The notes under the pieces are model-generated. The model was not told where the DNA came from, ran no database searches, and was given only the letters and a program-made list of their open reading frames with translations. A program made the position numbers and the translations under genes. Shown here piece by piece: positions 1 to 13,300 of a DNA stretch of 13,300 nt (the stretch's first letter is position 1; the number at the start of each line of letters is the position of its first letter). Source of the DNA: a virus (taxonomy: Duplodnaviria > Heunggongvirae > Uroviricota > Caudoviricetes); IMG/VR virus record IMGVR_UViG_2681813205_000017, positions 1 to 13,300 of that record; one strand, written 5' to 3'.

Positions 1-162
1 ATTACTGCTTCAGGTTGGTGTATTGCTTGCATCTTTCCCTTTTCATTCATAAAGATAGATCAAACAACAAAACCACCACCACCCCCCTGAAAAGGCTCAT
101 AAATAGCGAAAATCCGCGAGGTCTCCGCCCCGTAACAGGTCCATATGCCGGAAAGGACCCGC

Positions 163-184
163 AAAAAAGCCGGATTTCTCCGGC
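163..184 (-). terminator. Intrinsic terminator ending the capsid operon (GCCGGA-GAAA-UCCGGC stem-loop plus U6 on the - strand)
   Basis: 6-bp GC-rich stem with a GNRA tetraloop followed by six U on the - strand RNA, 7 bp downstream of the stop of the 191..604 gene. Confidence 0.7.
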
Positions 185-190
185 CTTGTC

Positions 191-604
191 TCAGATGGTT
201 TTCAGTATGCGATCGATGTCGCCGTCATCGCCCGGGTTTCTGCCATCGTATGCCATGCCAGCTGATACGGCTTGTGGGCTGTGCATGTCCATAAAGTTTT
301 CAAAGGCTGCGGTAAGCTCTGGTGCAACCTTCGGGCGTTCCTGCTCTATGGTCATGTTCAGGATGTTTTTAGCCGTATCAACATCAATACAAGGCACGTT
401 TGCCATTGCACGTAACAGCGGCTGATAGTCGTCAGATTCATGAAGCGCCATAATCGCATCAGCGCGCGGCTTGTCCTTCTCTTCCAGGCTGTTAAGTTGA
501 TATACGGCCTCGTAGGTTGATAAACCTCTGTCAGCCATTGCCCGCGCTTCGGCTTTAAATTTACTCGCCAGCGGTAGCGTCATGATACTTTCATTCGTTG
601 CCAT
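191..604 (-). CDS. Hypothetical protein, last gene of the capsid operon (137 aa)
   Basis: ATG at 604 preceded by a GGGGG Shine-Dalgarno. Starts 13 nt after the stop of the decoration-like gene and is followed by an intrinsic terminator. The + strand ORF 15..425 overlapping it lacks such context. Confidence 0.6.
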   Translation of the reverse strand: MATNESIMTLPLASKFKAEARAMADRGLSTYEAVYQLNSLEEKDKPRADAIMALHESDDYQPLLRAMANVPCIDVDTAKNILNMTIEQERPKVAPELTAAFENFMDMHSPQAVSAGMAYDGRNPGDDGDIDRILKTI

Positions 605-616
605 CGTTCCCCCTGC

Positions 617-952
617 TTATCGCGCCAGCGGCTGAACGGATACGCCAGAACCCGCAAAGGCGGCGCATTTTTTCGCGTCGGTGTCGGCGCTCTCAGGCCA
701 GTTAACGGCGGCAATATTGAATATCCCCGTCTTGTAGCACTGTGCTGATTTCTGCGTCGACGTGTCCACGGGGTACGAGGTCAGATAAACAGCCTTGCCA
801 GATTCCTGACCATCCCACGGCTTAAACTCGCCATTTTCCGCCAGCATCAGCGGGGTAAATTCCTGAATAACGCCAGCATCAGCAGCAAAATGTACCAGCG
901 TCGTGGATACCTGCTGACTACCTGCAAATAACTCAATGTATGGAGTGTCCAT
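617..952 (-). CDS. Head decoration protein, lambda gpD-like (111 aa)
   Basis: Translation shares recalled gpD motifs (TPLML, WDG, YK-G-F, WPE, KK-AFAG-VSV) and similar length. GGGGGG Shine-Dalgarno 5 nt upstream of the ATG. Immediately downstream of the capsid gene. Confidence 0.7.
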   Translation of the reverse strand: MDTPYIELFAGSQQVSTTLVHFAADAGVIQEFTPLMLAENGEFKPWDGQESGKAVYLTSYPVDTSTQKSAQCYKTGIFNIAAVNWPESADTDAKKCAAFAGSGVSVQPLAR

Positions 953-964
953 AGAATCCCCCCG

Positions 965-2020
965 TTAACCAATTTTGACGATAACAAATTTGCGAATATC
1001 TGCCGGTACCGGCTGCGGTGCGCTGTGCGTCTGCACGTACTCAATCGCCGGATCGCCGTCCTCAATCCAGTTTTTCGGGTAAAACATGTTTTGCGTTGCG
1101 CCCGTTCTGACCGCTTCCTGATCCATAATCGCACCATAGGCCACCAGCCCTTTATTGTTGGTGTTACCCAGGACCAGCAAATCAGGCTCAAGGAAATATT
1201 TTTCGGTGCCGTCGCTGTCAGTGTATTTGCCGGAATAGACGACAAGGGCAATATCGCCCAGATAGCCTTTAAAGCTCACCACTTCACCCAGGTTTTTACA
1301 GGCCAGTTCTGCGGCGGATTCTGAACCACGGGAAAGGTCGTACAGTTCGCGGAATTTTTTAAAGCTGCGTAACGTGCGCCATACTTCAGCGCCCATAATC
1401 ATGACGTTTGCGGGGCAATTGCCCTGATCAGCATAAAGCTCGATGTCATAGATTGGATCGTGTGTTTCTTTATCCAGCTCAGACCATTTTTTACCGTCAG
1501 CCTGTTCTATGATATTGCTTTCCGGGATCTTCCAGTCGATTTCATAGCGTTCTATGCCTTCGCCCTCAATGAGGTTTTTTCCGGTCGTTACCGCATTCAC
1601 CGCCAGCCATTCCACGCGTGCCTTAATGGCGTTTATCTGGCGGCGCATGTTGCCAGTAATCAGGCGCATACGGCGATAGGTAGGATCGTTAAGCTGTGCC
1701 GGATCTTCTCCAGCCATGCGCATGATGGTTTTTGTTGGATCGATTTCGTGTTTGGGTTTCATGTAGCCTGGTTTAATCGTGCTGGTTTCGTACCCTTTAT
1801 CGCGCTGGACCTGACTACCCACCATAGGCGAACAGAACGCTGACATCGTAACCTCTTCAATGTCCAGGGTGTCCAGAATGATGTTCTGGGTGTTGAAGGT
1901 CGCCACGTTCGGGAAAAACAGCGTGGTAAACAGCGGACTGAATTTAAATTCTGCAATATCCCCGCGATTCAGGTACGCGAAAAGCTGGTTAGTGTTAAGT
2001 GCCGTTGCTTTGCCTGCCAT
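965..2020 (-). CDS. Major capsid protein, lambda gpE family (351 aa)
   Basis: Translation aligns along its length with recalled lambda gpE (FKF-PLF, PGYMKPKHE, DPTYRRMR, LRSFK, RGSES, VVYSGKY, LVLGNT, YPKNW, GDPA, SAP). GGAGGTG Shine-Dalgarno; start overlaps the upstream stop (TAATG). Confidence 0.85.
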   Translation of the reverse strand: MAGKATALNTNQLFAYLNRGDIAEFKFSPLFTTLFFPNVATFNTQNIILDTLDIEEVTMSAFCSPMVGSQVQRDKGYETSTIKPGYMKPKHEIDPTKTIMRMAGEDPAQLNDPTYRRMRLITGNMRRQINAIKARVEWLAVNAVTTGKNLIEGEGIERYEIDWKIPESNIIEQADGKKWSELDKETHDPIYDIELYADQGNCPANVMIMGAEVWRTLRSFKKFRELYDLSRGSESAAELACKNLGEVVSFKGYLGDIALVVYSGKYTDSDGTEKYFLEPDLLVLGNTNNKGLVAYGAIMDQEAVRTGATQNMFYPKNWIEDGDPAIEYVQTHSAPQPVPADIRKFVIVKIG

Positions 2021-2226
2021 TATTCACCTCCATGCGTCTGATTCATGCCCAGCGCCGCGCGTAAATAGGCGCGGACCTGCCAGCCTGTTGACGGCTCAAC
2101 CATCGCCAGCGGATCAAGTCCTGCCGCAATGCCTGCTTTTACGTTCTGCTGGTGGCGTTCCTTGAGCGCCTTCACGATGTCGGGGCTTATGTACACCGAA
2201 ACACCGCCTTTTTTCTCTTCAGCCAT
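2020..2226 (-). CDS. Hypothetical small protein, first gene of the capsid operon (68 aa)
   Basis: ATG at 2226 with a purine-rich ribosome-binding site. Stop overlaps the capsid start codon (translational coupling). Lies ~55 nt downstream of a near-consensus sigma70 promoter. Confidence 0.6.
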   Translation of the reverse strand: MAEEKKGGVSVYISPDIVKALKERHQQNVKAGIAAGLDPLAMVEPSTGWQVRAYLRAALGMNQTHGGE

Positions 2227-2282
2227 AGTAAGAAATTCCTCTTCGACTTAAAAAATCATAACTGGATGTTTATCCAGTCCTG

Positions 2283-2310
2283 ATTATAATCAGAATTGCA
2301 TTTTATGCAA
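2283..2310 (-). promoter_or_regulatory. Sigma70-type promoter of the capsid operon (-35 TTGCAT, 16-bp spacer, -10 TATAAT on the - strand)
   Basis: On the - strand, TTGCAT (complement of 2305..2310) and TATAAT (complement of 2283..2288) with a 16-bp spacer. Both hexamers sit inside perfect palindromes (TTGCATTTTATGCAA and CTGATTATAATCAG). Confidence 0.55.
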
Positions 2311-2390
2311 TGATATTGAGTTATGTTGCAAATTATGAAATGATTATCCCGATCACGAACGCCAGTGCATCCAAAAACCTCATATGCAAA

Positions 2391-2429
2391 AGCCCGATAA
2401 GAACCCTCTGACCTTATCGGGCTTTTTTT
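2391..2429 (+). terminator. Strong stem-loop with T7 tract (AGCCCGATAAG ... CTTATCGGGCT TTTTTTT); + strand intrinsic terminator geometry, possibly bidirectional
   Basis: 11-bp stem followed by seven T on the + strand. On the - strand the same hairpin is followed by UUUUG. No + strand gene upstream, so it may act mainly as a second - strand terminator or insulator. Confidence 0.5.
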
Positions 2430-2435
2430 GGGCGC

Positions 2436-2457
2436 AAAAAAGCCGGATTGCTCCGGC
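2436..2457 (-). terminator. Intrinsic terminator after the 74-aa gene (GCCGGA-GCAA-UCCGGC plus U6)
   Basis: Same module as 163..184 and 2799..2821 but with a GCAA tetraloop; lies 20 bp downstream of the stop at 2478. Confidence 0.7.
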
Positions 2458-2477
2458 TATGTGTGCTGTGTGCTGGC

Positions 2478-2702
2478 TCAGTCTCTGATCTCTTTCAGAA
2501 ATTCTATCAATGCATCTATCTGTTCAGGATTTACCGCCAGCATTTCACCGGACAGAGCACATCTCACAAAACCATGCTGATCCTTTTCAATCAGTGCGCC
2601 CGTCTCCAGGAATGCGCGGTAATCATTGATGCTCATCGTCTCCATGTTGTCAGCATGGTATTTATCACGCTGTTTTAATATCTCATCAAATTTCATCGGC
2701 AT
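2478..2702 (-). CDS. Hypothetical protein (74 aa), monocistronic moron-like cassette
   Basis: ATG at 2702 preceded by AGAGGA. The gene is bracketed by intrinsic terminators on both sides (2799..2821 upstream, 2436..2457 downstream). Confidence 0.6.
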   Translation of the reverse strand: MPMKFDEILKQRDKYHADNMETMSINDYRAFLETGALIEKDQHGFVRCALSGEMLAVNPEQIDALIEFLKEIRD

Positions 2703-2798
2703 TGTTTTTTTCCTCTGTTGTGTCTGTTTGTTTCAGATAGTAACTATGCCTGACCGTGACGAAAACCCGGTAATGCGCCATACCGTTTCAACTGGTGC

Positions 2799-2821
2799 AA
2801 AAAAAGCCGGATTTCTCCGGC
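2799..2821 (-). terminator. Intrinsic terminator after the PerC-like gene (GCCGGA-GAAA-UCCGGC plus U7)
   Basis: GNRA-tetraloop hairpin plus U-tract on the - strand, 8 bp downstream of the stop at 2829. Confidence 0.7.
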
Positions 2822-2828
2822 TGTTTGA

Positions 2829-3104
2829 TTAGCTGTCCTGGTAATTGCGCCATATTTCATCACCAGCACCATCTATACCCATTTCGGCATAAGTGCGATC
2901 GACTGCCTTTTTCAGGTCTCCGAAATTATCCGGCGGCTCCGGTGCCCTCTGTGCCTTCCTTGAACATTCCAGCCGTCGCATCGTGATGTGATGCCGTTCC
3001 TTGTCTGTCTCCACCAGCTGCATGACTTCACCCCATCGCGCCGCCGCCCTCCGGTAAAAGCCTTTCGCCTCTAGTTCCTCCGCTATGCGGTCATGTACCA
3101 TCGT
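2829..3104 (-). CDS. PerC-family transcriptional regulator (91 aa)
   Basis: N-terminal AEELEAKGFYRRAAARWGEVM matches the recalled PerC/Pch signature (LE-G-WRRAA-RW). The likely start is the ATG at 3104 (GAGGGGG Shine-Dalgarno, 8 nt after the SSB stop) rather than the ORF-track start at 3221, which would overlap ssb by 110 nt. Confidence 0.65.
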   Translation of the reverse strand, partial: TMVHDRIAEELEAKGFYRRAAARWGEVMQLVETDKERHHITMRRLECSRKAQRAPEPPDNFGDLKKAVDRTYAEMGIDGAGDEIWRNYQDS

Positions 3105-3111
3105 CACCCCC

Positions 3112-3522
3112 TCAGAACGAAATATCATCACCGTAAGGGTCATCGCCTCCCGCTGGTGGCTGATTACCCTGTGTGCCTGTGGTTTTGCGTCTGTTCCCGC
3201 CAGGACGTGCCGCACGGGCACTGATTACGCTGTCTGCAATAACCTGATACCCCTGCCGTGTTTCCCCGTTCTGTCCGGTCCACTGGCTTACCTGCATCGT
3301 GCCGGATACGCTGGCAACATCGCCTTTTTGATGTTTAGCCAGGAAATCGGCCTGTTTGCCAAATGCGATAACCGATAACCATAACGTCGCCTGTCCGTCA
3401 TGTGCCTGGCTGCATGGCAACGATACCGCCATACGCGCCAGAGTCATCGGTGTGCCCTTGCTGGTCTGTTTTACCTGCGGGTCGTCCACCAGCCGCCCGT
3501 AAGCGGCTATCTGTGCCGTCAT
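3112..3522 (-). CDS. ssb: Single-stranded DNA-binding protein (136 aa)
   Basis: OB-fold core resembles E. coli SSB (W-x-x-V-x-x-FGK ... KG ... W), followed by a Gly/Gln/Pro-rich linker and an acidic C-terminal tail DDPYGDDISF (E. coli SSB ends DDDIPF). GGAGAGGTG Shine-Dalgarno; ATGA overlap with the upstream gene. Confidence 0.85.
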   Translation of the reverse strand: MTAQIAAYGRLVDDPQVKQTSKGTPMTLARMAVSLPCSQAHDGQATLWLSVIAFGKQADFLAKHQKGDVASVSGTMQVSQWTGQNGETRQGYQVIADSVISARAARPGGNRRKTTGTQGNQPPAGGDDPYGDDISF

Positions 3523-3770
3523 AATTCCACCTCTCCGGTTTTAACGTTGATGGTTGTTACCTGTTCCGCTTCGGCAATCTCCCGTTCTGTCAGCGTGGCA
3601 AAGTTTGCCGCCGCCGTGGTCATGAATGCGCTTATCAGGTCGGGATGTTCCTTCGCGTATCCTTCCCGCGTGTGGCGGTCTATCGTTCTGATTGCCACCT
3701 TTAAGGTGTGCTCAGTCATGTCTAACGCTTTATATTTTGGCTCTGTTCTGTCTCTGCGTTTTTGGGTCAT
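3519..3770 (-). CDS. Hypothetical protein (83 aa from the ATG at 3770; alternative start at 3800 gives 93 aa)
   Basis: ORF translationally coupled to ssb (ATGA overlap). The ATG at 3770 has a GAGAGG ribosome-binding site and avoids overlap with the iterons. Confidence 0.5.
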   Translation of the reverse strand: MTQKRRDRTEPKYKALDMTEHTLKVAIRTIDRHTREGYAKEHPDLISAFMTTAAANFATLTEREIAEAEQVTTINVKTGEVEL

Positions 3771-3782
3771 TTCTCGCAACCT

Positions 3783-3973
3783 CTCACTTTTTCGCCTCAC
3801 TTTTTCAAGCGTCTCACTTCGTCGCAGCTGGGATTTTCGGTTTTTCTATGTGTGTGTTTCATAAGTATTTTTTTACCCCTCACTTTTGAGGATGTATACA
3901 GGTCGAAAAGTGAGGGAGAGCAGGCTAATTTTGGCCCTCTTTCTATCCACCTCGCTTTTGCTCCTCACTTTTA
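3783..3973. repeat. Putative replication origin: six CTCACTT(TT) iterons flanking an AT-rich stretch
   Basis: CTCACTT copies at 3783, 3796, 3813 and 3879, an inverted copy at 3906..3915 (AAAAGTGAGG) and another at 3963, plus a degenerate copy near 3950. AT-rich segment 3836..3876. Lies directly 3' of the helicase gene. Confidence 0.55.
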
Positions 3974-5371
3974 TAGCGGCGCTACATCATCCCCATCGAT
4001 ACGAATAACCCCATCTTTTTCCAGCTTGTACAGCCAGCGCCGGAAGTTTTTCATTTCATACCCCAGCTTTTTCATGTCATCACGTAACAGCGGGATCGTG
4101 CACTTGTCGCCGTTCTGTGTGCGTGAACGGATGCACCCCCATAGCGCGGTATGGTTTTCCGTCTTGTTCCCTGCCTCCTCGATGCGCTCCAGTTCAACAG
4201 GAGGGCGCGGATCATCCACCACCACCAGCGACGTGATTAATTCACCGTCAGCGTCGGTAAAAAGCTCCACCACGCGTAAGTCATATGCGGCTTCTTTGAG
4301 TTCCTCCGCGTCCTTCATTTTGGTGCATGAGATAACCAGCGCTTCGCTTCCTGCGTCCTCCCTGCGTATCCGGTATTCAGCATCCAGCGAAGCACGAAAT
4401 GCACTGGAACCGCGCGCGCCTTTCGTCTCATCCTTGCCGGAATGGTGAACCACCAGCACCGTGGCCCCTGTGCGTCGTTTCAGTTCGTCACAACCACGGA
4501 TAAACGCCCCCATATCACGGGAATCATTTTCATCATTCCCACCAAAGCAACGCGCCAGCGTATCCAGAATAATCATGCGTACAGGTTTACCCGTTTCCCG
4601 CTCCACCTGACGGGCAGCGATAACCATTTCATCAACATCAAGCGGGGCAGCCGGAAAGATGGGGCGGTTTACCAGATACAGATTTTTCACCTGCTCATCG
4701 TGCACAACCTCCCAGGCTTTTACACGACGCGGAACACCTATACCGCCTTCACCAACCACATAGAGAACCGCACCATGTGCAACCCTGCGGCCTCCCCACT
4801 GGCGACCAGTGGCAACATGGCACGCCCACGATCCGGCAAGGAATGATTTATAGGACCCGCTAGCCCCGTATATGCTGCATAGCGATACCGCCGGAATAAT
4901 CCCCTTAACCACGTAATCCAGTTGCGTGTCGTATCCGGTAGATCCAACGCTCATCGGTAGCGTGGTTTTTCGCTGGTGGTTTTTTTCTTCCGCCGGCTCT
5001 TTCCCGCGCACCCGTTCCAGGTATTCGCGCCAGTTCTCCCGCATATGGCTGTGCATCCCTTCGGGGTAATAATTCGCATCAGTTACACCCGCCGCCGCCA
5101 GCTTGTGCGCAATGGCATTAATATTTGATGGCCTGATGTGGCCTGCCTTGTACAGCCGGACACAATAGCGCCCCTCGTCGATGATTCTCAGGTCTGCCAG
5201 TTCATCCAGTTGATCATCAGCCAGCACAACGGGAGGCACATTATCGCCAGCCAGTCGCCCGTCCTGTTCCTGCCACTGTTTCGCATGTGCCCAGGCATCA
5301 CTACCCGCAAAAATAATGACTTCGGTCATCTTGTCGTAAGGCTGTTTTTTTAAGTTCGGTGCGCTTTTCAT
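3971..5371 (-). CDS. Replication initiator / replicative helicase, RecA-fold ATPase (RepA / AAA_25-like), 466 aa
   Basis: Walker A-like GASGSYKS, Walker B-like MIILDTLARCF, and VLVVHHSGKD typical of RepA/DnaB-like helicases of satellites and plasmids. ATGA overlap with the upstream gene; iterons immediately downstream. Confidence 0.75.
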   Translation of the reverse strand: MKSAPNLKKQPYDKMTEVIIFAGSDAWAHAKQWQEQDGRLAGDNVPPVVLADDQLDELADLRIIDEGRYCVRLYKAGHIRPSNINAIAHKLAAAGVTDANYYPEGMHSHMRENWREYLERVRGKEPAEEKNHQRKTTLPMSVGSTGYDTQLDYVVKGIIPAVSLCSIYGASGSYKSFLAGSWACHVATGRQWGGRRVAHGAVLYVVGEGGIGVPRRVKAWEVVHDEQVKNLYLVNRPIFPAAPLDVDEMVIAARQVERETGKPVRMIILDTLARCFGGNDENDSRDMGAFIRGCDELKRRTGATVLVVHHSGKDETKGARGSSAFRASLDAEYRIRREDAGSEALVISCTKMKDAEELKEAAYDLRVVELFTDADGELITSLVVVDDPRPPVELERIEEAGNKTENHTALWGCIRSRTQNGDKCTIPLLRDDMKKLGYEMKNFRRWLYKLEKDGVIRIDGDDVAPL

Positions 5372-5667
5372 TTCTTGCCCCTGAATCCGTTAATCATGGT
5401 TTTCAGCTTCTGGATGTTTGCCCGTGCCCTGGCGTTGCTGGTGGGCACGTTATGCGGCGCGGTCTGTACCAGAGAAAAATCACGCCGGAACTGATAAACA
5501 GGCATCACGCAATCATATTCGTAACCTTCACGGCGGTAGGTTACGCGCCGTTCTTCCACGCCCTTAATCATTACCGTGCCGCCGTACTGGTCGCGGTAAA
5601 TATCACCGCGCGTAAATTTAGGGTGAGTGTTGCCACTGGCAGTTAAGCCAGAATATTTAAGTTTCAT
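5368..5667 (-). CDS. Hypothetical protein (99 aa), translationally coupled to the helicase gene
   Basis: ATG at 5667; stop overlaps the helicase start (ATGA). Basic, Tyr/Arg-rich; no recognisable motif. Confidence 0.55.
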   Translation of the reverse strand: MKLKYSGLTASGNTHPKFTRGDIYRDQYGGTVMIKGVEERRVTYRREGYEYDCVMPVYQFRRDFSLVQTAPHNVPTSNARARANIQKLKTMINGFRGKK

Positions 5668-5672
5668 TATTT

Positions 5673-5906
5673 TTATTCTCCGGTGTGCTGTTCTTTATAT
5701 CTGTCGTGCAATAGATCTATTTCTTGCAGTTCCATTATTACAGGATCAAGAAGCGTTATTAATGCCGTGGCAATTCTTGATTTTTGTTTGTCGCGTTCAT
5801 TGTCGCCAAGTGTTTCAAGCCATATGCGCAATATTTCCAGCATGTTTTCACTGTGAGAAAGTGCAAGAAATGCGCGGTCTATTGTTTGGTGGTAAATATC
5901 ACGCAT
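5673..5906 (-). CDS. Hypothetical protein (77 aa)
   Basis: ATG at 5906 overlaps the stop of the upstream gene (ATGCGTGA). Part of the same coupled gene chain. Confidence 0.55.
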   Translation of the reverse strand: MRDIYHQTIDRAFLALSHSENMLEILRIWLETLGDNERDKQKSRIATALITLLDPVIMELQEIDLLHDRYKEQHTGE

Positions 5907-6357
5907 GGCTTACATCCTCAGGAAATTTTCTTCTATAACGCGCCTCTGCCACATATTCCGCATAATCGGCGGCGATATTCAGTACATCAAGCCCCGTTGA
6001 TTTATATTCTCTCGTGGAAAGTAAGAAAAAAGCCGCTCTAATAAGTTCTGGCATTGACGAAAGCGCATCAGCCGCATCATCAGGAACGCCGGAAAATTCC
6101 TGTTTCAGGGAATTAAAACGATCATCACGCATAACCCCCCCCCCATTTTCACAATCAGCAACAAGAATATTTTTAGCGTCATTCAGCGACCGCGTTGCGG
6201 TGTATCGGATACATTCCAGGGCGAATAGTGTGTATTCTTCCCTTTCTTCCCTTTCTTCCTTTTGTGCAAGCTCTGCTGTGCATTCAATATCAATAAGCGC
6301 GTGCATCAGCGTAGTGAGTGCGGCGGCGGCTGCGTCCGGTGTGGTTTTATTGCACAT
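5899..6357 (-). CDS. Hypothetical acidic protein (153 aa from the ATG at 6357) containing an in-frame G10 tract
   Basis: ATG at 6357 has a GGAGGGG Shine-Dalgarno 3 nt upstream. The ORF-track start at 6411 has no ribosome-binding site and would overlap the upstream gene by 65 nt. Contains an EEREEREE repeat and the Gly-Gly-Gly encoded by the C10 run at 6135..6144. Confidence 0.55.
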   Translation of the reverse strand: MCNKTTPDAAAAALTTLMHALIDIECTAELAQKEEREEREEYTLFALECIRYTATRSLNDAKNILVADCENGGGVMRDDRFNSLKQEFSGVPDDAADALSSMPELIRAAFFLLSTREYKSTGLDVLNIAADYAEYVAEARYRRKFPEDVSHA

Positions 6358-6577
6358 GTACCCCTCCGCATTTTTTTTCGTTAGAAATAAGCGTTCTTCT
6401 TTCCTGTTCATCGATCAGGAATACGCAGACCTCACCGCTAAGGCGTTTAAGTAAGCCGATGATTGCCCCTGATTCGCTGTCGGTCATCATGCCTGGGTAA
6501 TCCTCTGCCAGTGCGCAAATAACTTCGATTTGGTGGGCGCGTTCTACTGCCTGTTGTAGTGTGATTTCCTGGCTCAT
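6347..6577 (-). CDS. Hypothetical protein (76 aa)
   Basis: ATG at 6577 with a GGGGG ribosome-binding site; ATGA overlap with the candidate upstream ORF. Contains an A8 tract on the coding strand. Confidence 0.55.
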   Translation of the reverse strand: MSQEITLQQAVERAHQIEVICALAEDYPGMMTDSESGAIIGLLKRLSGEVCVFLIDEQERRTLISNEKKCGGVHVQ

Positions 6578-6774
6578 AAGCCTACCCCCTGACGAATACG
6601 GGCAGCGAATACCATCACGCAGCCAGCCGGGGATTGCAGGCGTGCTTCCTGTTCGCTGGTGGCCTCAATGGTAATCACGCGCGGTTGTGCAGTGCTCAGG
6701 GCGATAAAACGCCAAATGTATTTATTCAGGTTGTGCGAGTCCCGCCCTTGCGGGTGTGTGGTATGATTTCTCAT
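6574..6774 (-). CDS. Candidate small ORF (66 aa), putative first gene of the early operon
   Basis: Not listed separately in the ORF track; it is the C-terminal end of the spurious 381-aa ORF. ATG at 6774 with a GAGG ribosome-binding site 6 nt upstream; stop overlaps the next start (ATGA); ~100 nt downstream of the predicted - strand promoter. Confidence 0.4.
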   Translation of the reverse strand: MRNHTTHPQGRDSHNLNKYIWRFIALSTAQPRVITIEATSEQEARLQSPAGCVMVFAARIRQGVGL

Positions 6775-6872
6775 AGCTACCTCGATACTCTCGTTATCGT
6801 TGGTGGTTAGAAGCCCCGTTACTGCTCCTACAGTGCGGGGTTTCGTCGTTTCTGCACCTTGCATTAACAAGG

Positions 6873-6950
6873 TGTAAGTAACTTTATTTATAGGTGGCTT
6901 ACATGTCAATGCTTTTATGTAAGACTTTTTATGTGTATATTGTCTTACAC
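6873..6950. promoter_or_regulatory. Divergent switch region: four TGTAAG / CTTACA operator half-sites overlapping a - strand TTGACA-N17-TAAAGT promoter
   Basis: Half-sites at 6873 (TGTAAG), 6898 (CTTACA), 6919 (TGTAAG) and 6945 (CTTACA), alternating in orientation. On the - strand a perfect -35 TTGACA (complement of 6904..6909) and a -10 TAAAGT (complement of 6881..6886) with a 17-bp spacer. Confidence 0.5.
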
Positions 6951-6970
6951 TTTCATTGAGAGGATTACAG

Positions 6971-7276
6971 ATGGCTACAGGTTCAAAAAACGCAAAATCA
7001 CAATCACTGACAGCTCGGATCCCGCATGATGTTATTGAAGGCATGGAATCCGTAAAACTGGACGGTGAAAGCAACGCCGGATTCATAGTAACCGCCATGC
7101 GCGGTGAAATCGCCCGCCGCCAGGCAGAAGGAAGCGGAGAAAACCTCCTGATTTCTTCGCTCAATGCACTGGCGCAGGTGGAAAAACTCGGAATCAAAGC
7201 CGCCGAGGAGATCGGGCAGCTCGTCACTGTCGCACGTGAAGAACTCCAGCGCCGCAAGACTAAAGAACCAGAGTAA
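6971..7276 (+). CDS. Putative transcriptional regulator, candidate repressor of the early operon (101 aa)
   Basis: ATG at 6971 with a GAGAGGA Shine-Dalgarno. Divergent from the - strand operon and immediately downstream of the operator cluster. Function is inferred from position only. Confidence 0.55.
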   Translation: MATGSKNAKSQSLTARIPHDVIEGMESVKLDGESNAGFIVTAMRGEIARRQAEGSGENLLISSLNALAQVEKLGIKAAEEIGQLVTVAREELQRRKTKEPE

Positions 7277-7318
7277 TCACCATCAGCGCCGTGGTGTAAG
7301 GTATTACGGCGCATTGCT

Positions 7319-7507
7319 ATGCAGGACAACACAATGACCGATAAAGAATTGACCAAAACATTATCACCGGCACGGAAAAGACGGCGCAGAAAGATAGAGC
7401 ATGAATCAGAAAGATTCGCGCCATGTGCTTTTGCCCTTGAGCAATTCCTTAAAGAGTACAGGGAAAAGCGCTCATTGCAGGTATGGCAACGAACTGAACC
7501 AGACTGA
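7319..7507 (+). CDS. Small basic protein (62 aa; alternative start at 7334)
   Basis: ORF following the regulator on the same strand, with a Lys/Arg-rich stretch (ARKRRRRK). Followed by an intrinsic terminator at 7603..7630. Confidence 0.4.
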   Translation: MQDNTMTDKELTKTLSPARKRRRRKIEHESERFAPCAFALEQFLKEYREKRSLQVWQRTEPD

Positions 7508-7602
7508 TAGCATTGCCCACCAGCCTGATAGCGACTATCATTGCCGTTCTTATGTTTGGGATCACACACACAAACGGCGCAGCGGGTTATCTGTTCAGAA
7601 AG

Positions 7603-7630
7603 GCGGCTCCATTTCGGGGCCGCTTTTTTT
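7603..7630 (+). terminator. Intrinsic terminator for the + strand regulator genes
   Basis: GCGGCUCC ... GGGGCCGC stem (one G-U wobble) with a 5-nt loop, followed by seven T. Confidence 0.6.
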
Positions 7631-7776
7631 ATGTCTGAAAAACCCCAATTTTGTTGTTTTTCAGTTTCACCAGGGCGAACGAATCCCCGCCCACGTTCTG
7701 GCGTATATTCAATCTTCATGGTTATAGCTCTGTGTTCAGATGATTGATGTGTGGCGGCTGCGTGCCGCCAGCGTGA

Positions 7777-7965
7777 TTAATGAACTGCCTTGCAGCTATC
7801 CTTCCAGGCCAGAACCTCGGATAAAGACCAGCCAACGGAACGACCGCCAAGTTTACGACGTGATGGGAATTGTCCGGCCTTTTCCAGGCGGTAGCGACAC
7901 GTACGGCTAAGGCCGGTTAGTTTTTCGCATTCTTTTTCACGTATAAACCGATCAGTGCTTAACAC
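7777..7965 (-). CDS. alpA: AlpA-family phage regulator / excisionase-like protein (62 aa from GTG at 7965)
   Basis: CEKLTGLSRTCRYRLEKAGQFP ... GGRSVGWSLSEVLAWK matches the AlpA helix-turn-helix signature. The ORF track starts at a TTG at 8046, but a GTG at 7965 has an AGGGGGG Shine-Dalgarno and gives the typical AlpA length. Confidence 0.75.
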   Translation of the reverse strand: MLSTDRFIREKECEKLTGLSRTCRYRLEKAGQFPSRRKLGGRSVGWSLSEVLAWKDSCKAVH

Positions 7966-8238
7966 TATTGCCCCCCTTTCGTTTCTTAAAGAGTCATCAG
8001 GTGTCTTATTGTGTCGTATTGTTCCCGCTAGAGTGATGAATGGCAAATATTGAGGATGTATGATTTACAGAAAATGAAACAGTAAGAATAAAATCTTTTA
8101 AATTCATGTTAATACAAAGGCATAAAATATTGTTTCATGCCTTTTTTCTCACGCGTTAAAGCGTTATTCGCTAATGTATAAAAAAACAGTCACACAAATA
8201 AAATCAGTCACTTATAAACCTGTGTACTTTTTCGCCTC

Positions 8239-8288
8239 TTGTTCGTGGTTGTTCCACGTTGTTTCACATTGTTCGCCGTTGTATCTGT
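8239..8288. repeat. Five tandem 10-bp units each beginning TTGT (helically phased) between int and alpA
   Basis: TTGTTCGTGG TTGTTCCACG TTGTTTCACA TTGTTCGCCG TTGTATCTGT, an exact 10-bp period. Confidence 0.6.
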
Positions 8289-8330
8289 GTGCTTATCCAG
8301 TATGCGCATACTGAAAAAACACGAAAAAAA

Positions 8331-9548
8331 TTATTTTCTTCTGGCTGCTGGTAGTGCGGTTACGTTTTCATGTGTTCCCGCCAGTATCCCTAACCGCTCC
8401 ATCCACATATCCAGCGCATTGCGTTTAGCATCCAGATAACGGGAATGATTATAAACTCGCTGCATTCCTGGCATCTGGTGGCCTGTAAGCTGCTCCACGA
8501 CATGCGGATCAACGCCTAAATCGTTCAGCATGGTTGTAAAGGTGCGCCGGATGTCATGCAGTGACCAGTGAGGATGATTAAGCCTCCTGTGCGCTAATCT
8601 TCCATACTGCGATACGCTGGCCTCCTGTTTCACTTCCCCCAGCAATAAGCCCGTGTGCCTGTTCTGCTCCACCAGCTGCGTGACGAACGGCAGTATTGCT
8701 TCCGGTATGGGCCGGAATATTGCCACCTTCGTTTTGCTGTGTTCTTTCGGCACGGTCCAGAGCATTTCGGTAAAATCCCACTCGCTGATCTCCGATAACC
8801 TCAGTTCTACCGTCCGGCATCCGAACACAATCAGGAGGCGGATTAACGCGATGTAGTAGGGGGAGAATATTTTTTTGTCCAGTGCCTGCAATAATTCGCC
8901 CAGTTCTTTGGTGCTTAAGACACGCTCGCTTATATCCGGTTTTTTCCCAACGTCCGCCACACTCATATCATCAAGAACGTTGCTGATTGCATAGCGCCGC
9001 CTCCGGCAGAACTTAAGCGCCTGTTTGCACGTCTGTAGCAAGAATCCGGCAGTAACAGGCGTTCGCTTTGCCACCTGGTCAAAACAGGCCAGCCAGTGCC
9101 GTAGCTCGCATTTATCCAGCGGCATAGCACCAATGTGCTGTATTACGTGATTATTAAGTCGCCTTTTCAGGGCGATATAATCCACGCGGTTTTCCTTTAC
9201 GTAATACTCAAGCCAGTAGGTGAGCGCATCGCCAACCGTTACGGGCTTTAACGCTTCCTGTACGGTGTAATTCATCTCATGACGTGGATTTTTCCCCTCA
9301 GCCAGCCATGTGCGACACTGTGCGGCTTTTTCCCTGGCTGCTTTCAGGCTCAGATCAGGATAACTTCCCAGCTTAATGCGTTCGGGTCGTGTCTCCCTTC
9401 CCGTTCCGGCCCTGTATGTGAAATACCAGGTCAATTTCCCTGATGTTAAATATTTCACGCTCAGGTTTCCGCCATCACTATAAAACGTGTTTTTCTCCGC
9501 TGGCTTACCATGAAGTTTCCTTAGCAAGGTATCGCTCAGTTTGTTCAT
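8331..9548 (-). CDS. int: Tyrosine integrase, P4-like family
   Basis: N-terminal arm-binding-type motif (KPAEKNTFYSDGGNLSVKYL), C-terminal catalytic region with HDIRRT and VYNHSRY (R, H-x-x-R, Y). Start is probably the ATG at 9548 (MNKLSD...); the ORF track uses a GTG at 9560. It is the outermost island gene next to the junction. Confidence 0.85.
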   Translation of the reverse strand: MNKLSDTLLRKLHGKPAEKNTFYSDGGNLSVKYLTSGKLTWYFTYRAGTGRETRPERIKLGSYPDLSLKAAREKAAQCRTWLAEGKNPRHEMNYTVQEALKPVTVGDALTYWLEYYVKENRVDYIALKRRLNNHVIQHIGAMPLDKCELRHWLACFDQVAKRTPVTAGFLLQTCKQALKFCRRRRYAISNVLDDMSVADVGKKPDISERVLSTKELGELLQALDKKIFSPYYIALIRLLIVFGCRTVELRLSEISEWDFTEMLWTVPKEHSKTKVAIFRPIPEAILPFVTQLVEQNRHTGLLLGEVKQEASVSQYGRLAHRRLNHPHWSLHDIRRTFTTMLNDLGVDPHVVEQLTGHQMPGMQRVYNHSRYLDAKRNALDMWMERLGILAGTHENVTALPAARRK

Positions 9549-9584
9549 TGCTCTGCTCACGTTTTACCCCCTCTTTACGAAAAA

Positions 9585-9650
9585 GTGACTACACCAGTGA
9601 CTACACCGATCGTTGCACAAAGGGCTACAACGTGAAACAAGCTGGAACAA
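9585..9650. promoter_or_regulatory. int upstream region with a 12-bp tandem repeat (GTGACTACACC x2) and four 10-bp phased units ending ACAA; candidate arm-type or regulator binding sites
   Basis: GTGACTACACCA GTGACTACACCG at 9585..9608. CGTTGCACAA AGGGCTACAA CGTGAAACAA GCTGGAACAA at 9611..9650, which is the reverse complement motif of the array at 8239..8288. Confidence 0.45.
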
Positions 9651-9757
9651 GGAAAATCACAAATCTGTTGATAATCAAAAACATAATGCACAGCCTGAAA
9701 CATTATGAAACAGCAAAAAACACTAAATGATAAAATGCTGTTATTCTTAACCCGCTG

Positions 9758-10642
9758 GTGCAACACATGGTCCGCTGGCGAGTGCCGCGTGTACTGGCGG
9801 TGTCGATTTTGATGACCATCATCGTGATGGCGATGGTGTTGCTATTAGCTTATCTGGGTTCCGCGCTCAACGAGTTGACGCGGACGTTACCGCAATATCG
9901 CAACTCTATTATGACGCCGCTGCAAGCTCTTGAGCCGTTGTTGCAACGCGTAGGGATTGACGTCTCAGTTGACCAGCTGGCGCATTACATTGATCCGAAC
10001 GCGGCGATGACGTTGCTCACCAACTTATTGACGCAGTTATCTAATGCCATGTCATCAATATTTTTATTGCTGCTGACGGTGCTGTTTATGCTGCTCGAAG
10101 TGCCACAATTGCCCGGAAAATTTCAGCAAATGATGGCGCGTCCGGTTGAAGGGATGGCGGCGATTCAACGTGCAATTGACAGTGTTTCTCATTATCTGGT
10201 GCTGAAAACAGCCATCAGCATCATCACCGGCCTGGTCGCCTGGGCGATGCTCGCCGCACTCGATGTTCGCTTCGCTTTTGTCTGGGGATTGCTGGCCTTT
10301 GCGCTTAATTACATCCCTAATATTGGTTCAGTTCTCGCGGCAATCCCCCCTATCGCTCAGGTACTGGTGTTTAATGGCTTCTACGAAGCGTTGCTGGTGC
10401 TGGCGGGATATCTGCTGATTAATCTGGTCTTCGGCAATATTCTGGAGCCGCGCATCATGGGACGTGGGCTGGGGCTTTCCACATTGGTGGTATTTTTGTC
10501 GTTGATTTTTTGGGGATGGTTGTTAGGACCGGTGGGTATGCTGCTTTCCGTGCCGTTAACAATTATTGTCAAAATTGCGCTTGAACAAACAGCGGGAGGT
10601 CAAAGCATCGCCGTTCTGTTAAGCGATCTCAATAAAGAGTGA
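9758..10642 (+). CDS. tqsA: AI-2 exporter TqsA (YdgG), 5'-truncated by the island insertion (294 codons retained)
   Basis: Translation matches recalled E. coli TqsA from its internal [15 protein letters not shown] segment to the C-terminal SDLNKE. An in-frame TAA at 9731..9733 lies directly upstream and there is no native N-terminus or ribosome-binding site. The ORF-track start is an internal GTG. Confidence 0.8.
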
Positions 10643-10662
10643 CGGCCTCCGCAGAGGCCGTC
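10641..10662. terminator. Shared stem-loop between convergent tqsA and pntB (GACGGCCTC-cgca-GAGGCCGTC)
   Basis: 9-bp perfect GC-rich inverted repeat lying exactly between the two stop codons. Confidence 0.55.
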
Positions 10663-10666
10663 AGGG

Positions 10667-12058
<1,392 letters not shown>

Positions 12059-12065
12059 TTACCCC

Positions 12066-13300
<1,235 letters not shown>

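Follow-up and report, generated by a model that had tools for sequence, protein, structure and literature searches.

The stretch of DNA analysed here, hereafter the window, comprises 13,300 nucleotides (positions 1 to 13,300 of the IMG/VR virus record IMGVR_UViG_2681813205_000017) and is a phage-inducible chromosomal island (PICI, a phage satellite) of Escherichia coli belonging to the EcCICFT073 type. The subject of this study is the control region of its capsid operon. This operon lies on the minus strand and starts with a gene for a 68-aa protein (2020..2226; phrog_3255, function unknown), the counterpart of the first gene of c1498–c1501 in CFT073. It is followed by genes for a major capsid protein of the lambda gpE family (965..2020; Pfam PF03864, Phage_cap_E, E = 9e-50; phrog_29), a head decoration protein of the lambda gpD family (617..952; Pfam PF02924; phrog_49) and a 137-aa protein (191..604; phrog_1999), labelled head-tail connector in a related record. 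In relatives the operon runs past the window end to a TerS/Rpp-like gene at the end of the island. Ahead of the first gene the minus strand reads ...TCATTTCATAATTTGCAACATAACTCAATATCA TTGCAT AAAATGCAATTCTGAT TATAAT CAG GACTGGATAAACATCCAGTT ATGATTTTTTAAGTCGAAGAGGAATTTCTTACT ATG, so that TTGCAT (2310..2305) and TATAAT (2288..2283), separated by 16 bp, are directly readable as the −35 and −10 hexamers of a promoter heading the capsid genes, as an earlier note on this DNA had proposed. The term “near-consensus” used in that note suits the −10 element, which matches in 6 of 6 positions, but is overstated for the −35 element, which shares with TTGACA only the TTG (3/6). For this reason the promoter is missing from the consensus promoter scan, where at least 4/6 matches per hexamer are needed. 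TTGC of the −35 element is invariant in all relatives and TATAAT is kept in Salmonella, in Pluralibacter and in the capsid-forming PICI (cf-PICI) L003; thus hexamers, a spacer within 16–18 bp and conservation in relatives all agree with a sigma-70 promoter. Judging by promoter geometry and by a homology breakpoint described below, transcription is predicted to start 5–8 nt after the −10 element, at 2275..2278 of the minus strand. Further downstream (2236..2256) lie a U-rich tract, T6 (2256..2251), and the Shine-Dalgarno sequence AAGAGGAA (2243..2236) of the first gene.

On the upstream side two hairpins were found. The intrinsic terminator AGCCGGA-GCAA-TCCGGCT followed by T5 (2441..2458, minus strand), listed by the terminator scan, ends the preceding unit of the PerC gene and a 74-aa open reading frame (ORF). 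The second, bidirectional-looking hairpin GCCCGATAAG...CTTATCGGGC (2392..2422) is flanked by A7 and T4; across relatives its stem is invariant and its loop variable, and it marks the upstream boundary of a mobile “late module”. RNA folding of both hairpins jointly gives −34.2 kcal/mol (z = −4.7), and the two predicted terminators insulate the capsid-operon promoter from upstream transcription. The beginning of the late module was placed at ~2428, i.e. at the terminator, because many E. coli BLAST matches break there. From the terminator to about −70 the relatives carry unrelated alleles, while the segment from −70 to the start codon is conserved (36 distinct haplotypes). Another exchange point was observed in L003 (5843–6160), whose HK97-type capsid module is entirely different from that of the window. 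From the terminator as far as ...TATAATCCTGACTGG L003 is homologous to the window, and beyond that it carries the cf-PICI leader, that is, another 5' untranslated region. This exchange point coincides with the predicted transcription start (~2276), and since the homology stops there, the promoter may be considered as a swappable cassette ending at the predicted start. In the sequences compared, the control region of the late operon has the properties of a recombination cassette, joining differing replication and capsid modules at ~2428 and ~2276. Based on these data one can regard the minus-strand region 2227–2440 as a self-contained sigma-70 promoter region of the capsid/packaging operon, with the start point given by prediction.

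Several searches around this region gave negative results. Comparison of the promoter with phage records by blastn returned no match, so that it was not copied from a sequenced helper phage. Scanning of genome contigs with the conserved block TCATTTCATAATNTGCAACA yielded only chance matches in unrelated taxa and none in Enterobacteria, and the promoter has no 10-mers in common with the rest of the island except a LexA-like half-site at 8292. The alternative promoter TTCATA-18-TATCAT (2339–2310) was discarded, its −10 element being variable (TATCAT/CATCAT/TTTTAT/TATTAT), and inspection of the upstream block as a UP element, a Fur box or an IHF site revealed mismatches to the consensus and bases varying among alleles.

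The inverted repeat CTGGAT-GTTT-ATCCAG, reported earlier at 2262..2277, is indeed there. Its assignment to a regulator encoded by the island is not supported: together with its flanks it reads as a LexA (SOS) box, GACTGGATAAACATCCAGTT (2260..2279, minus strand), so that it is likely an operator bound by the host repressor LexA and not by a protein of the island. CTG at 2277–2275 and CAG at 2264–2262 of the minus strand are separated by the 10 bp characteristic of LexA operators, forming a 16-bp core CTG-N10-CAG (2277..2262, about −1..+15 relative to the predicted start) within a 20-bp site. The box is separated from TATAAT by 3 bp and includes the predicted start. Both arms (CTGGAT/ATCCAG) are the same as in the ruvA box CGCTGGATATCTATCCAGCA, and the cho box shares CTGGAT. 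For quantitative comparison a heterology index (HI) matrix was built from the 18 verified E. coli LexA boxes given in Table 4 of PMC3009722. The HI of GACTGGATAAACATCCAGTT is 6.26, next to ruvA (6.54) and uvrB (6.62) and below dinG (9.29), so that it falls within the range of known boxes (0.27–9.29, or 0.6–12.8 in the leave-one-out mode). It is the best-scoring LexA-like site in the 13.3-kb window, and an HI of 6.26 was reached neither in 300 dinucleotide shuffles of the window (0/300) nor in 3000 shuffles of the intergenic region (0/3000).

The geometry CTG-N10-CAG was registered in all 62 matches from E. coli capsid-E-type loci, where the offset of the box is constant (HI 5.2–9.2; 642 kb of related loci), and also in Salmonella and Pluralibacter. 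Its loop (A/G, AA to TT) and flanks vary among relatives, but the arms do not. Salmonella retains the box as GACTGGATAAATATCCAGAT with a changed centre (HI 8.3), and in Pluralibacter it is retained as AACTGGATGTTTGTCCAGTT (HI 7.6), shifted 12 bp downstream by an insertion. In the variant L043 ATCCAG is changed to ATACAG, which breaks the palindrome and any RNA stem but gives a better LexA match (HI 5.49).

This variant bears directly on a different explanation, which we regard as rather unlikely, namely that the start-proximal repeat acts as RNA, forming either an mRNA-stabilising 5' stem-loop or a weak leader terminator/attenuator that needs an antiterminator. The segment 2279–2260 is listed by the terminator scan, and a transcript starting at 2279 would carry an 8-bp hairpin in its leader, which folds with −11.8 kcal/mol (z = −2). 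The Pluralibacter hairpin runs straight into U6, and an A-to-G change there preserves pairing as U-G. However, the likelier start at 2275/2276 leaves a stem of 4–5 bp, and the fold of such a leader does not differ from shuffles (z = 0.0). In the window the U6 run begins 4–5 nt past a stem with only 3 G-C pairs, so that the arrangement typical of an intrinsic terminator or attenuator, a G+C-rich stem directly followed by a U-tract, is not seen there and is better approached only in Pluralibacter. Besides the stem-breaking change in L043, the U-run, together with the Shine-Dalgarno sequence, is retained even in the L093/L100 lineage, which has neither the hairpin nor the LexA box. Finally, an RNA hairpin accounts neither for the CTG-N10-CAG geometry nor for arms identical to those of ruvA.

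The palindrome CTGATTATAATCAG was found around the −10 element at 2280..2293, as had been claimed, but its interpretation as an operator did not stand comparison with relatives. Its outer pair occurs as C..G, A..G, A..T and C..T. Most E. coli copies, as well as Pluralibacter, have an unchanged TGATTATAATCA, but Salmonella (GGTTTATAATCA) and the cf-PICI L003 (TAGTTATAATCC) have lost the left arm and kept TATAAT. Most probably this palindrome is an incidental by-product of TATAAT and its flanking bases.

The third palindrome, TTGCATTTTATGCAA at the −35 element, does exist, though at 2296..2310 instead of the 2297..2311 given before (a slip of 1 bp). It is not the lone site it was taken for, but one half of a two-dyad system, whose partner at 2340–2326 had been overlooked. 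We designate these dyads O1 and O2. O1 (TTGCATAAAATGCAA; 2296..2310, minus strand) covers the −35 element and the upstream half of the spacer (about −34..−20, centre near −27). O2 (TTTCATAATTTGCAA; 2326..2340, minus strand; about −64..−50, centre near −57), found by a search for TTGCA-N5-TGCAA, is identical to O1 in 12 of 15 positions and forms the core of the most conserved, near-invariant intergenic block. The dyad consensus is the 15-bp TTKCR-N5-TGMAA, and an apparent decay of TGCAA to TGAAA represents the use of an alternative allowed half-site (TGMAA). O2 and O1 start exactly 30 bp apart in every lineage examined, including several E. coli alleles, Salmonella (TTTCATATTATGAAA / TTGCGATAAGTGCAA), Pluralibacter (TTTCATTAAATGCAA / TTGCATTAAATGCAA), the L093/L100 lineage and the cf-PICI L003. 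Variation is concentrated in the centres, where 9 of 10 positions are variable against 3 of 20 in the arms (Fisher p = 1.3e-4). O1 has the −35 hexamer itself as its left arm, while its right arm and both arms of O2 are not explained by contacts with RNA polymerase. Exact matches to the consensus are 7 in the window (counting strands) versus 0.24 expected. They include O3 (TTGCACCAGTTGAAA; 2786..2800, minus strand), which immediately follows the PerC terminator, lies ~85 bp ahead of the 74-aa ORF and was found again in 20 related loci.

When viral contigs were scanned with the two-dyad pattern, at least 120 loci were returned, and 165 loci were classified. Among the matches listed, 68/165 have a VYISP-type first gene, i.e. 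the 68-aa family of the window; 21/165 belong to other PICI-like families, in which the pair is directly followed by T(T/C)ATAAT and then by a different small gene (M..VKPVLL.., 54–63 aa); the remaining 76/165 include coding repeats and chance matches. One locus of the second group lies between PerC and a morphogenesis/TerS-like module. Thus, the dyad pair with a −10 element occurs in other PICI families having different late modules, and its distribution suggests an element of general use in the control of PICI late operons. As a separate observation, both dyads abut TTATAAT in the PICI-like family represented by the viral contigs L103, L110–L112, L150, L168, L186 and L190; there they are followed by the conserved CTGTATAAATATCAGG, which contains a perfect LexA left half but has the spacing CTG-N9-CAG and may be a degenerate SOS box, and then by the small gene MSKQSVKPVLLS....

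Proteins that might recognise O1 and O2 were sought among products of the island and of the host. In the AlphaFold 2 model of the 68-aa protein (pLDDT 73) an extended N-terminus is followed by two helices. Foldseek gave no match for it at E < 1, and no Pfam or PDB profile matched. Alignment by hhalign with the small proteins of other dyad-bearing PICIs was collinear but not significant (P = 0.03); both families display a strand-helix-helix-like pattern, the evidence for which is likewise not significant. A ribbon-helix-helix repressor is therefore supported neither by structure prediction nor by fold search or profiles, and the protein is left as a candidate only. Moreover, two unlike small proteins are combined with one and the same DNA motif, which argues against the small first-gene products as binders. 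The half-sites TTGCA/TGCAA and the TTGCAA in O2 look like those of CytR operators (TGCAA / TTGCA pentamers, octamer GTTGCATT; PMC3454398), but the dyads of the island are everted (TTGCA-N5-TGCAA) as compared with the published TGCAA-N2-3-TTGCA. In view of this wrong orientation, of flanks formed by unrelated alleles and of no CRP site (TGTGA-N6-TCACA) being seen by eye, a CytR/CRP operator was rejected, and the likeness to CytR is a resemblance only.

For AlpA, more suitable sequences were found elsewhere. The segment 8239–8284, between int and alpA, contains four to five TTGTTC units with a 10-bp phasing, and loose matches to TTGTTC number 10 in the window versus 1.7 expected. These repeats, absent from the capsid-operon promoter, are candidate AlpA/Xis-type sites and as such better candidates for AlpA than O1/O2. 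Three TTGTTC units precede a weak capsid promoter TTTACC-16-TATTCT in L092 (an EDL933-type cf-PICI, ~3800–3850), which suggests that cf-PICIs drive their capsid operon differently from the island of the window. As to the dyad itself, its possible role in AlpA autoregulation was discarded, since only a one-mismatch copy lies at 8065–8079 and no recurrent exact copy was found near alpA in 630 kb of related loci. That one-mismatch dyad, TTTCATTTTCTGTAA, lies where a candidate promoter of alpA (TTAACA-16-TATTCT, 8112–8085) is predicted to start transcription.

It was proposed in the earlier note that all three palindromes are operators of dimeric regulators of the island (AlpA, the PerC-like protein or the 6971–7276 product), which occlude the promoter until a helper acts. 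The general idea of occlusion survives in part, as at least one and probably two of the palindromes are operator-like and placed so as to block RNA polymerase, but the three are not equivalent. The specific scheme, to which we assign little probability, has in its favour that the repeats exist and cluster more than in most shuffles, that O1 and the LexA box are in blocking positions, and that AlpA is a known activator of PICI genes (PMC6092414). On the other hand, the start-proximal repeat fits the consensus of host LexA far beyond chance, the symmetry of the −10 palindrome is not conserved, the TTGTTC repeats proposed for AlpA/Xis-type proteins (8239–8284) are absent here, and no exact dyad recurs near alpA. 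The participation of PerC is contradicted by L001, L002, L093, L094 and L102, which have the same promoter and no PerC gene annotated in the stretches read, so that PerC is not required in cis. Taken together, these comparisons favour host LexA and a further factor over PerC as the putative regulators; AlpA may still take part.

Clustering of the repeats was evaluated from the number of inverted repeats whose arms have at least 6 bp and whose loops do not exceed 4 bp. The window has 21 repeat centres versus a mean of 15.2 in dinucleotide shuffles. Three centres within 50 bp appeared in 12 of 300 whole-window shuffles (4%) and, when only the local AT-rich stretch was shuffled, in 12 of 5000 cases (0.24%). 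By count alone the cluster is unusual but not overwhelming, and matches and conservation of each repeat are stronger evidence than clustering. The same numbers apply to the view that the promoter is constitutive and that three palindromes in AT-rich DNA are chance or mutational by-products. The 4% of shuffles agrees with it, TTATAA within T+TATAAT is automatically palindromic, and, according to the relevant passage of PMC12890032, the operon is detectably expressed in CFT073 without deliberate induction. This view is nevertheless very improbable, since no shuffle of the window (0/300) or of the intergenic region (0/3000) gave an equally good LexA box, arms and centres of O1/O2 differ in conservation (p = 1.3e-4, as above), and the LexA box and the dyads, unlike the −10 palindrome, persist across genera amid changing bases.

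Hardly credible is antitermination of the Q-like or Pseudomonas AlpA-like type, in which a spacer-bound factor would load on paused RNA polymerase and read through the leader hairpin and terminators: the AlpA element of P. aeruginosa between −35 and −10 (−25..−20; PMC9371919) does correspond to the place of the O1 right arm in the spacer, and a hairpin with a U-run lies downstream of the start, but the Pseudomonas protein has DNA-contacting residues up to H142, a 21Q-like fold and a non-palindromic site GGGACG (PMC9371919), while the AlpA ORF of the island has at most 89 aa with only a 50-residue Phage_AlpA domain, the first transcribed bases offer no good −10-like pause element (GATAAA/GATGAA without the final T), and the leader hairpin is a poor terminator, so that a promoter of this type was rejected.

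Considered jointly, the data make it fairly probable that the capsid operon is transcribed from a stand-alone late sigma-70 promoter gated by a LexA operator, with a second, dyad-based layer of control being likely. RNA polymerase would use TTGCAT-16 bp-TATAAT, initiating at ~2275–2278. In undamaged cells initiation or promoter escape would be prevented by a LexA dimer lying at about −3..+17, and once the SOS response is triggered, RecA-stimulated self-cleavage of LexA would free the promoter. The same SOS signal also induces lambdoid helper prophages, so that capsid-related proteins of the satellite might be made in step with the helper. O1 and O2 are most plausibly bound by a dimeric or tetrameric regulator, and a regulator sitting at O1 would compete with sigma region 4, leading to repression.

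A number of observations weigh against this interpretation. The LexA box is lacking in the L093/L100 lineage, which has the same operon, and in the cf-PICIs L003 and L092, so that LexA control would be lineage-specific and not essential to the module. Core positions 4 and 13 are G/C (CTGG...CCAG) instead of the commoner CTGT...ACAG, and the affinity for LexA is probably moderate, like that of ruvA. Expression of alpA is independent of SOS (PMC6092414), which means that the master switch of the island is not LexA. Most E. coli copies are closely related, and conservation within E. coli therefore counts little alone. As any palindrome, the start-proximal repeat can fold as RNA, in a terminator-like manner in Pluralibacter, where U6 follows directly. 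No mapped start, LexA binding or SOS expression for this operon was found in the searchable literature, and among the candidates considered no protein could be assigned to O1/O2.

Further generalisation is possible, though only tentatively, and we hold it for somewhat less than an even chance. The pair of dyads (O2-N15-O1), situated directly after a terminator and before a −10 element and a small (55–68 aa) first gene, may constitute a previously undescribed and widely shared “late-operon switch” of enterobacterial PICIs, read by a dedicated regulator. In EcCICFT073-type islands it would be combined with the LexA operator, so that the capsid genes would fire only if SOS and a second signal are present. 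This switch may be read by the product of the small first gene, which would then be an autorepressor, by some other conserved protein of the island, or by a factor of the host.

LexA-like sequences were also noticed outside the capsid promoter. The intergenic region between int and alpA contains two (at 8283–8302 and 8172–8191): TACTGGATAAGCACACAGAT with intact CTG-N10-CAG and HI 9.65, and TAATGTATAAAAAAACAGTC with HI 6.68, in which ATG replaces CTG on one side. In other PICIs LexA-like sites, some of them canonical (e.g. AACTGTACAAAAAACCAGTA in L076, HI 4.68), lie 5.2–8.2 kb upstream of the capsid promoter, presumably in a position equivalent to the int–alpA intergenic region.

Among known systems the proposed arrangement is closest in its design to the SOS promoters of E. 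coli, such as those of ruvAB and cho. The site of the island has the same 16-bp core CTG-N10-CAG with an AT-rich centre, arms identical to ruvA and an HI in the range of these boxes, and, as in SOS promoters, the box overlaps the start region, here a predicted one, of a sigma-70 promoter. Unlike them, it is located on a mobile satellite ahead of virion-related genes rather than a repair gene, and is accompanied by two further operator-like dyads. A parallel may also exist in the pathogenicity islands of Staphylococcus aureus (SaPIs), whose operon I, responsible for packaging and capsid morphogenesis, is controlled by LexA, as Ubeda and co-workers are said to have found in 2007 (cited in PMC6092414 and PMC6739421). 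In both cases a late/packaging operon of a satellite has its own promoter with a host LexA site (predicted in the window), and the master switch, Stl in SaPIs and AlpA in the island of the window, is independent of SOS. However, the sequences are unrelated, the LexA motif is that of Gram-positive bacteria in one case and of gammaproteobacteria in the other, and the genes are different (lambda E/D-like here), so that by analogy the likeness to SaPI operon I would be convergent. No report of LexA control of a late operon in Gram-negative PICIs was found in the searchable literature.

The prototype Gram-negative PICI, EcCICFT073 (Fillol-Salom et al. 2018, 2019), has the same late module, represented by c1498–c1501, and in the CFT073 lineage the same promoter with TTGCAC-16-TATAAT, AGCTGGATGAACATCCAGTT, O1 and O2. 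The island of the window differs by its RepA-like helicase, PerC and 74-aa ORF and by its integration site next to pntAB/tqsA. Published work on EcCICFT073 describes AlpA and Rpp but not the capsid-operon promoter. More generally, AlpA was characterised as a helper-induced activator of PICI genes (PMC6092414) and Rpp as a packaging redirector, while none of the PICI papers searched describes the promoter studied here. Induction of Gram-negative PICIs in the literature thus amounts to AlpA and does not cover the switching on of the capsid/packaging/interference module. If the proposed control is real, these islands would sense SOS directly for their late genes, as staphylococcal SaPIs do, providing a case of convergence, and SOS-inducing antibiotics would increase the expression of genes for the satellite capsid and for phage interference even in cells with no helper. 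The two-dyad element, in turn, offers a handle for finding a second regulator common to several PICI families.

The genes c1498–c1501 correspond to 2226–191 of the window. According to PMC12890032 they rise together after a shift from 23 to 37 °C and are the sole genes of the island named in the relevant passage of that paper, which agrees with an independent transcription unit. This response hints at temperature or H-NS-type control of the AT-rich promoter, besides the controls proposed above. It was the sole match obtained for c1498/c1499, for which no SOS expression data were found in the searchable literature.

The gene order of the window is that of EcCICFT073. All island genes are on the minus strand: int (8331–9560), alpA (7777–8046), a RepA-like helicase gene (3971–5371), SSB and PerC (2829–3221), followed by the 74-aa ORF, two terminators, the 68-aa ORF and the genes for capsid E and gpD. 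Such a set (int, AlpA, helicase, capsid E and gpD, with TerS-like downstream in relatives) is that of a PICI-type element with a capsid/packaging operon. BLAST located the region in 768 of 5426 complete E. coli genomes (~1 in 7), including O157:H7, O26, CFT073 and Nissle 1917.

Some minor features of the neighbouring genes should be mentioned. The ORF called as PerC (130 aa, 2829–3221) overlaps the SSB ORF (3112–3522) by 110 bp; since the Pfam PerC match starts at residue 41, the true PerC start is probably near 3101. On the other side the island adjoins pntAB and tqsA. The ORF of an AI-2E transporter (tqsA-like, 9758–10642) has a GTG start, and its match to the Pfam profile does not begin before position 40. 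Its distance to the integrase end is 200 bp, the window contains no tRNA gene, and the attachment site of the island may be at or in the 5' end of this tqsA-like gene.

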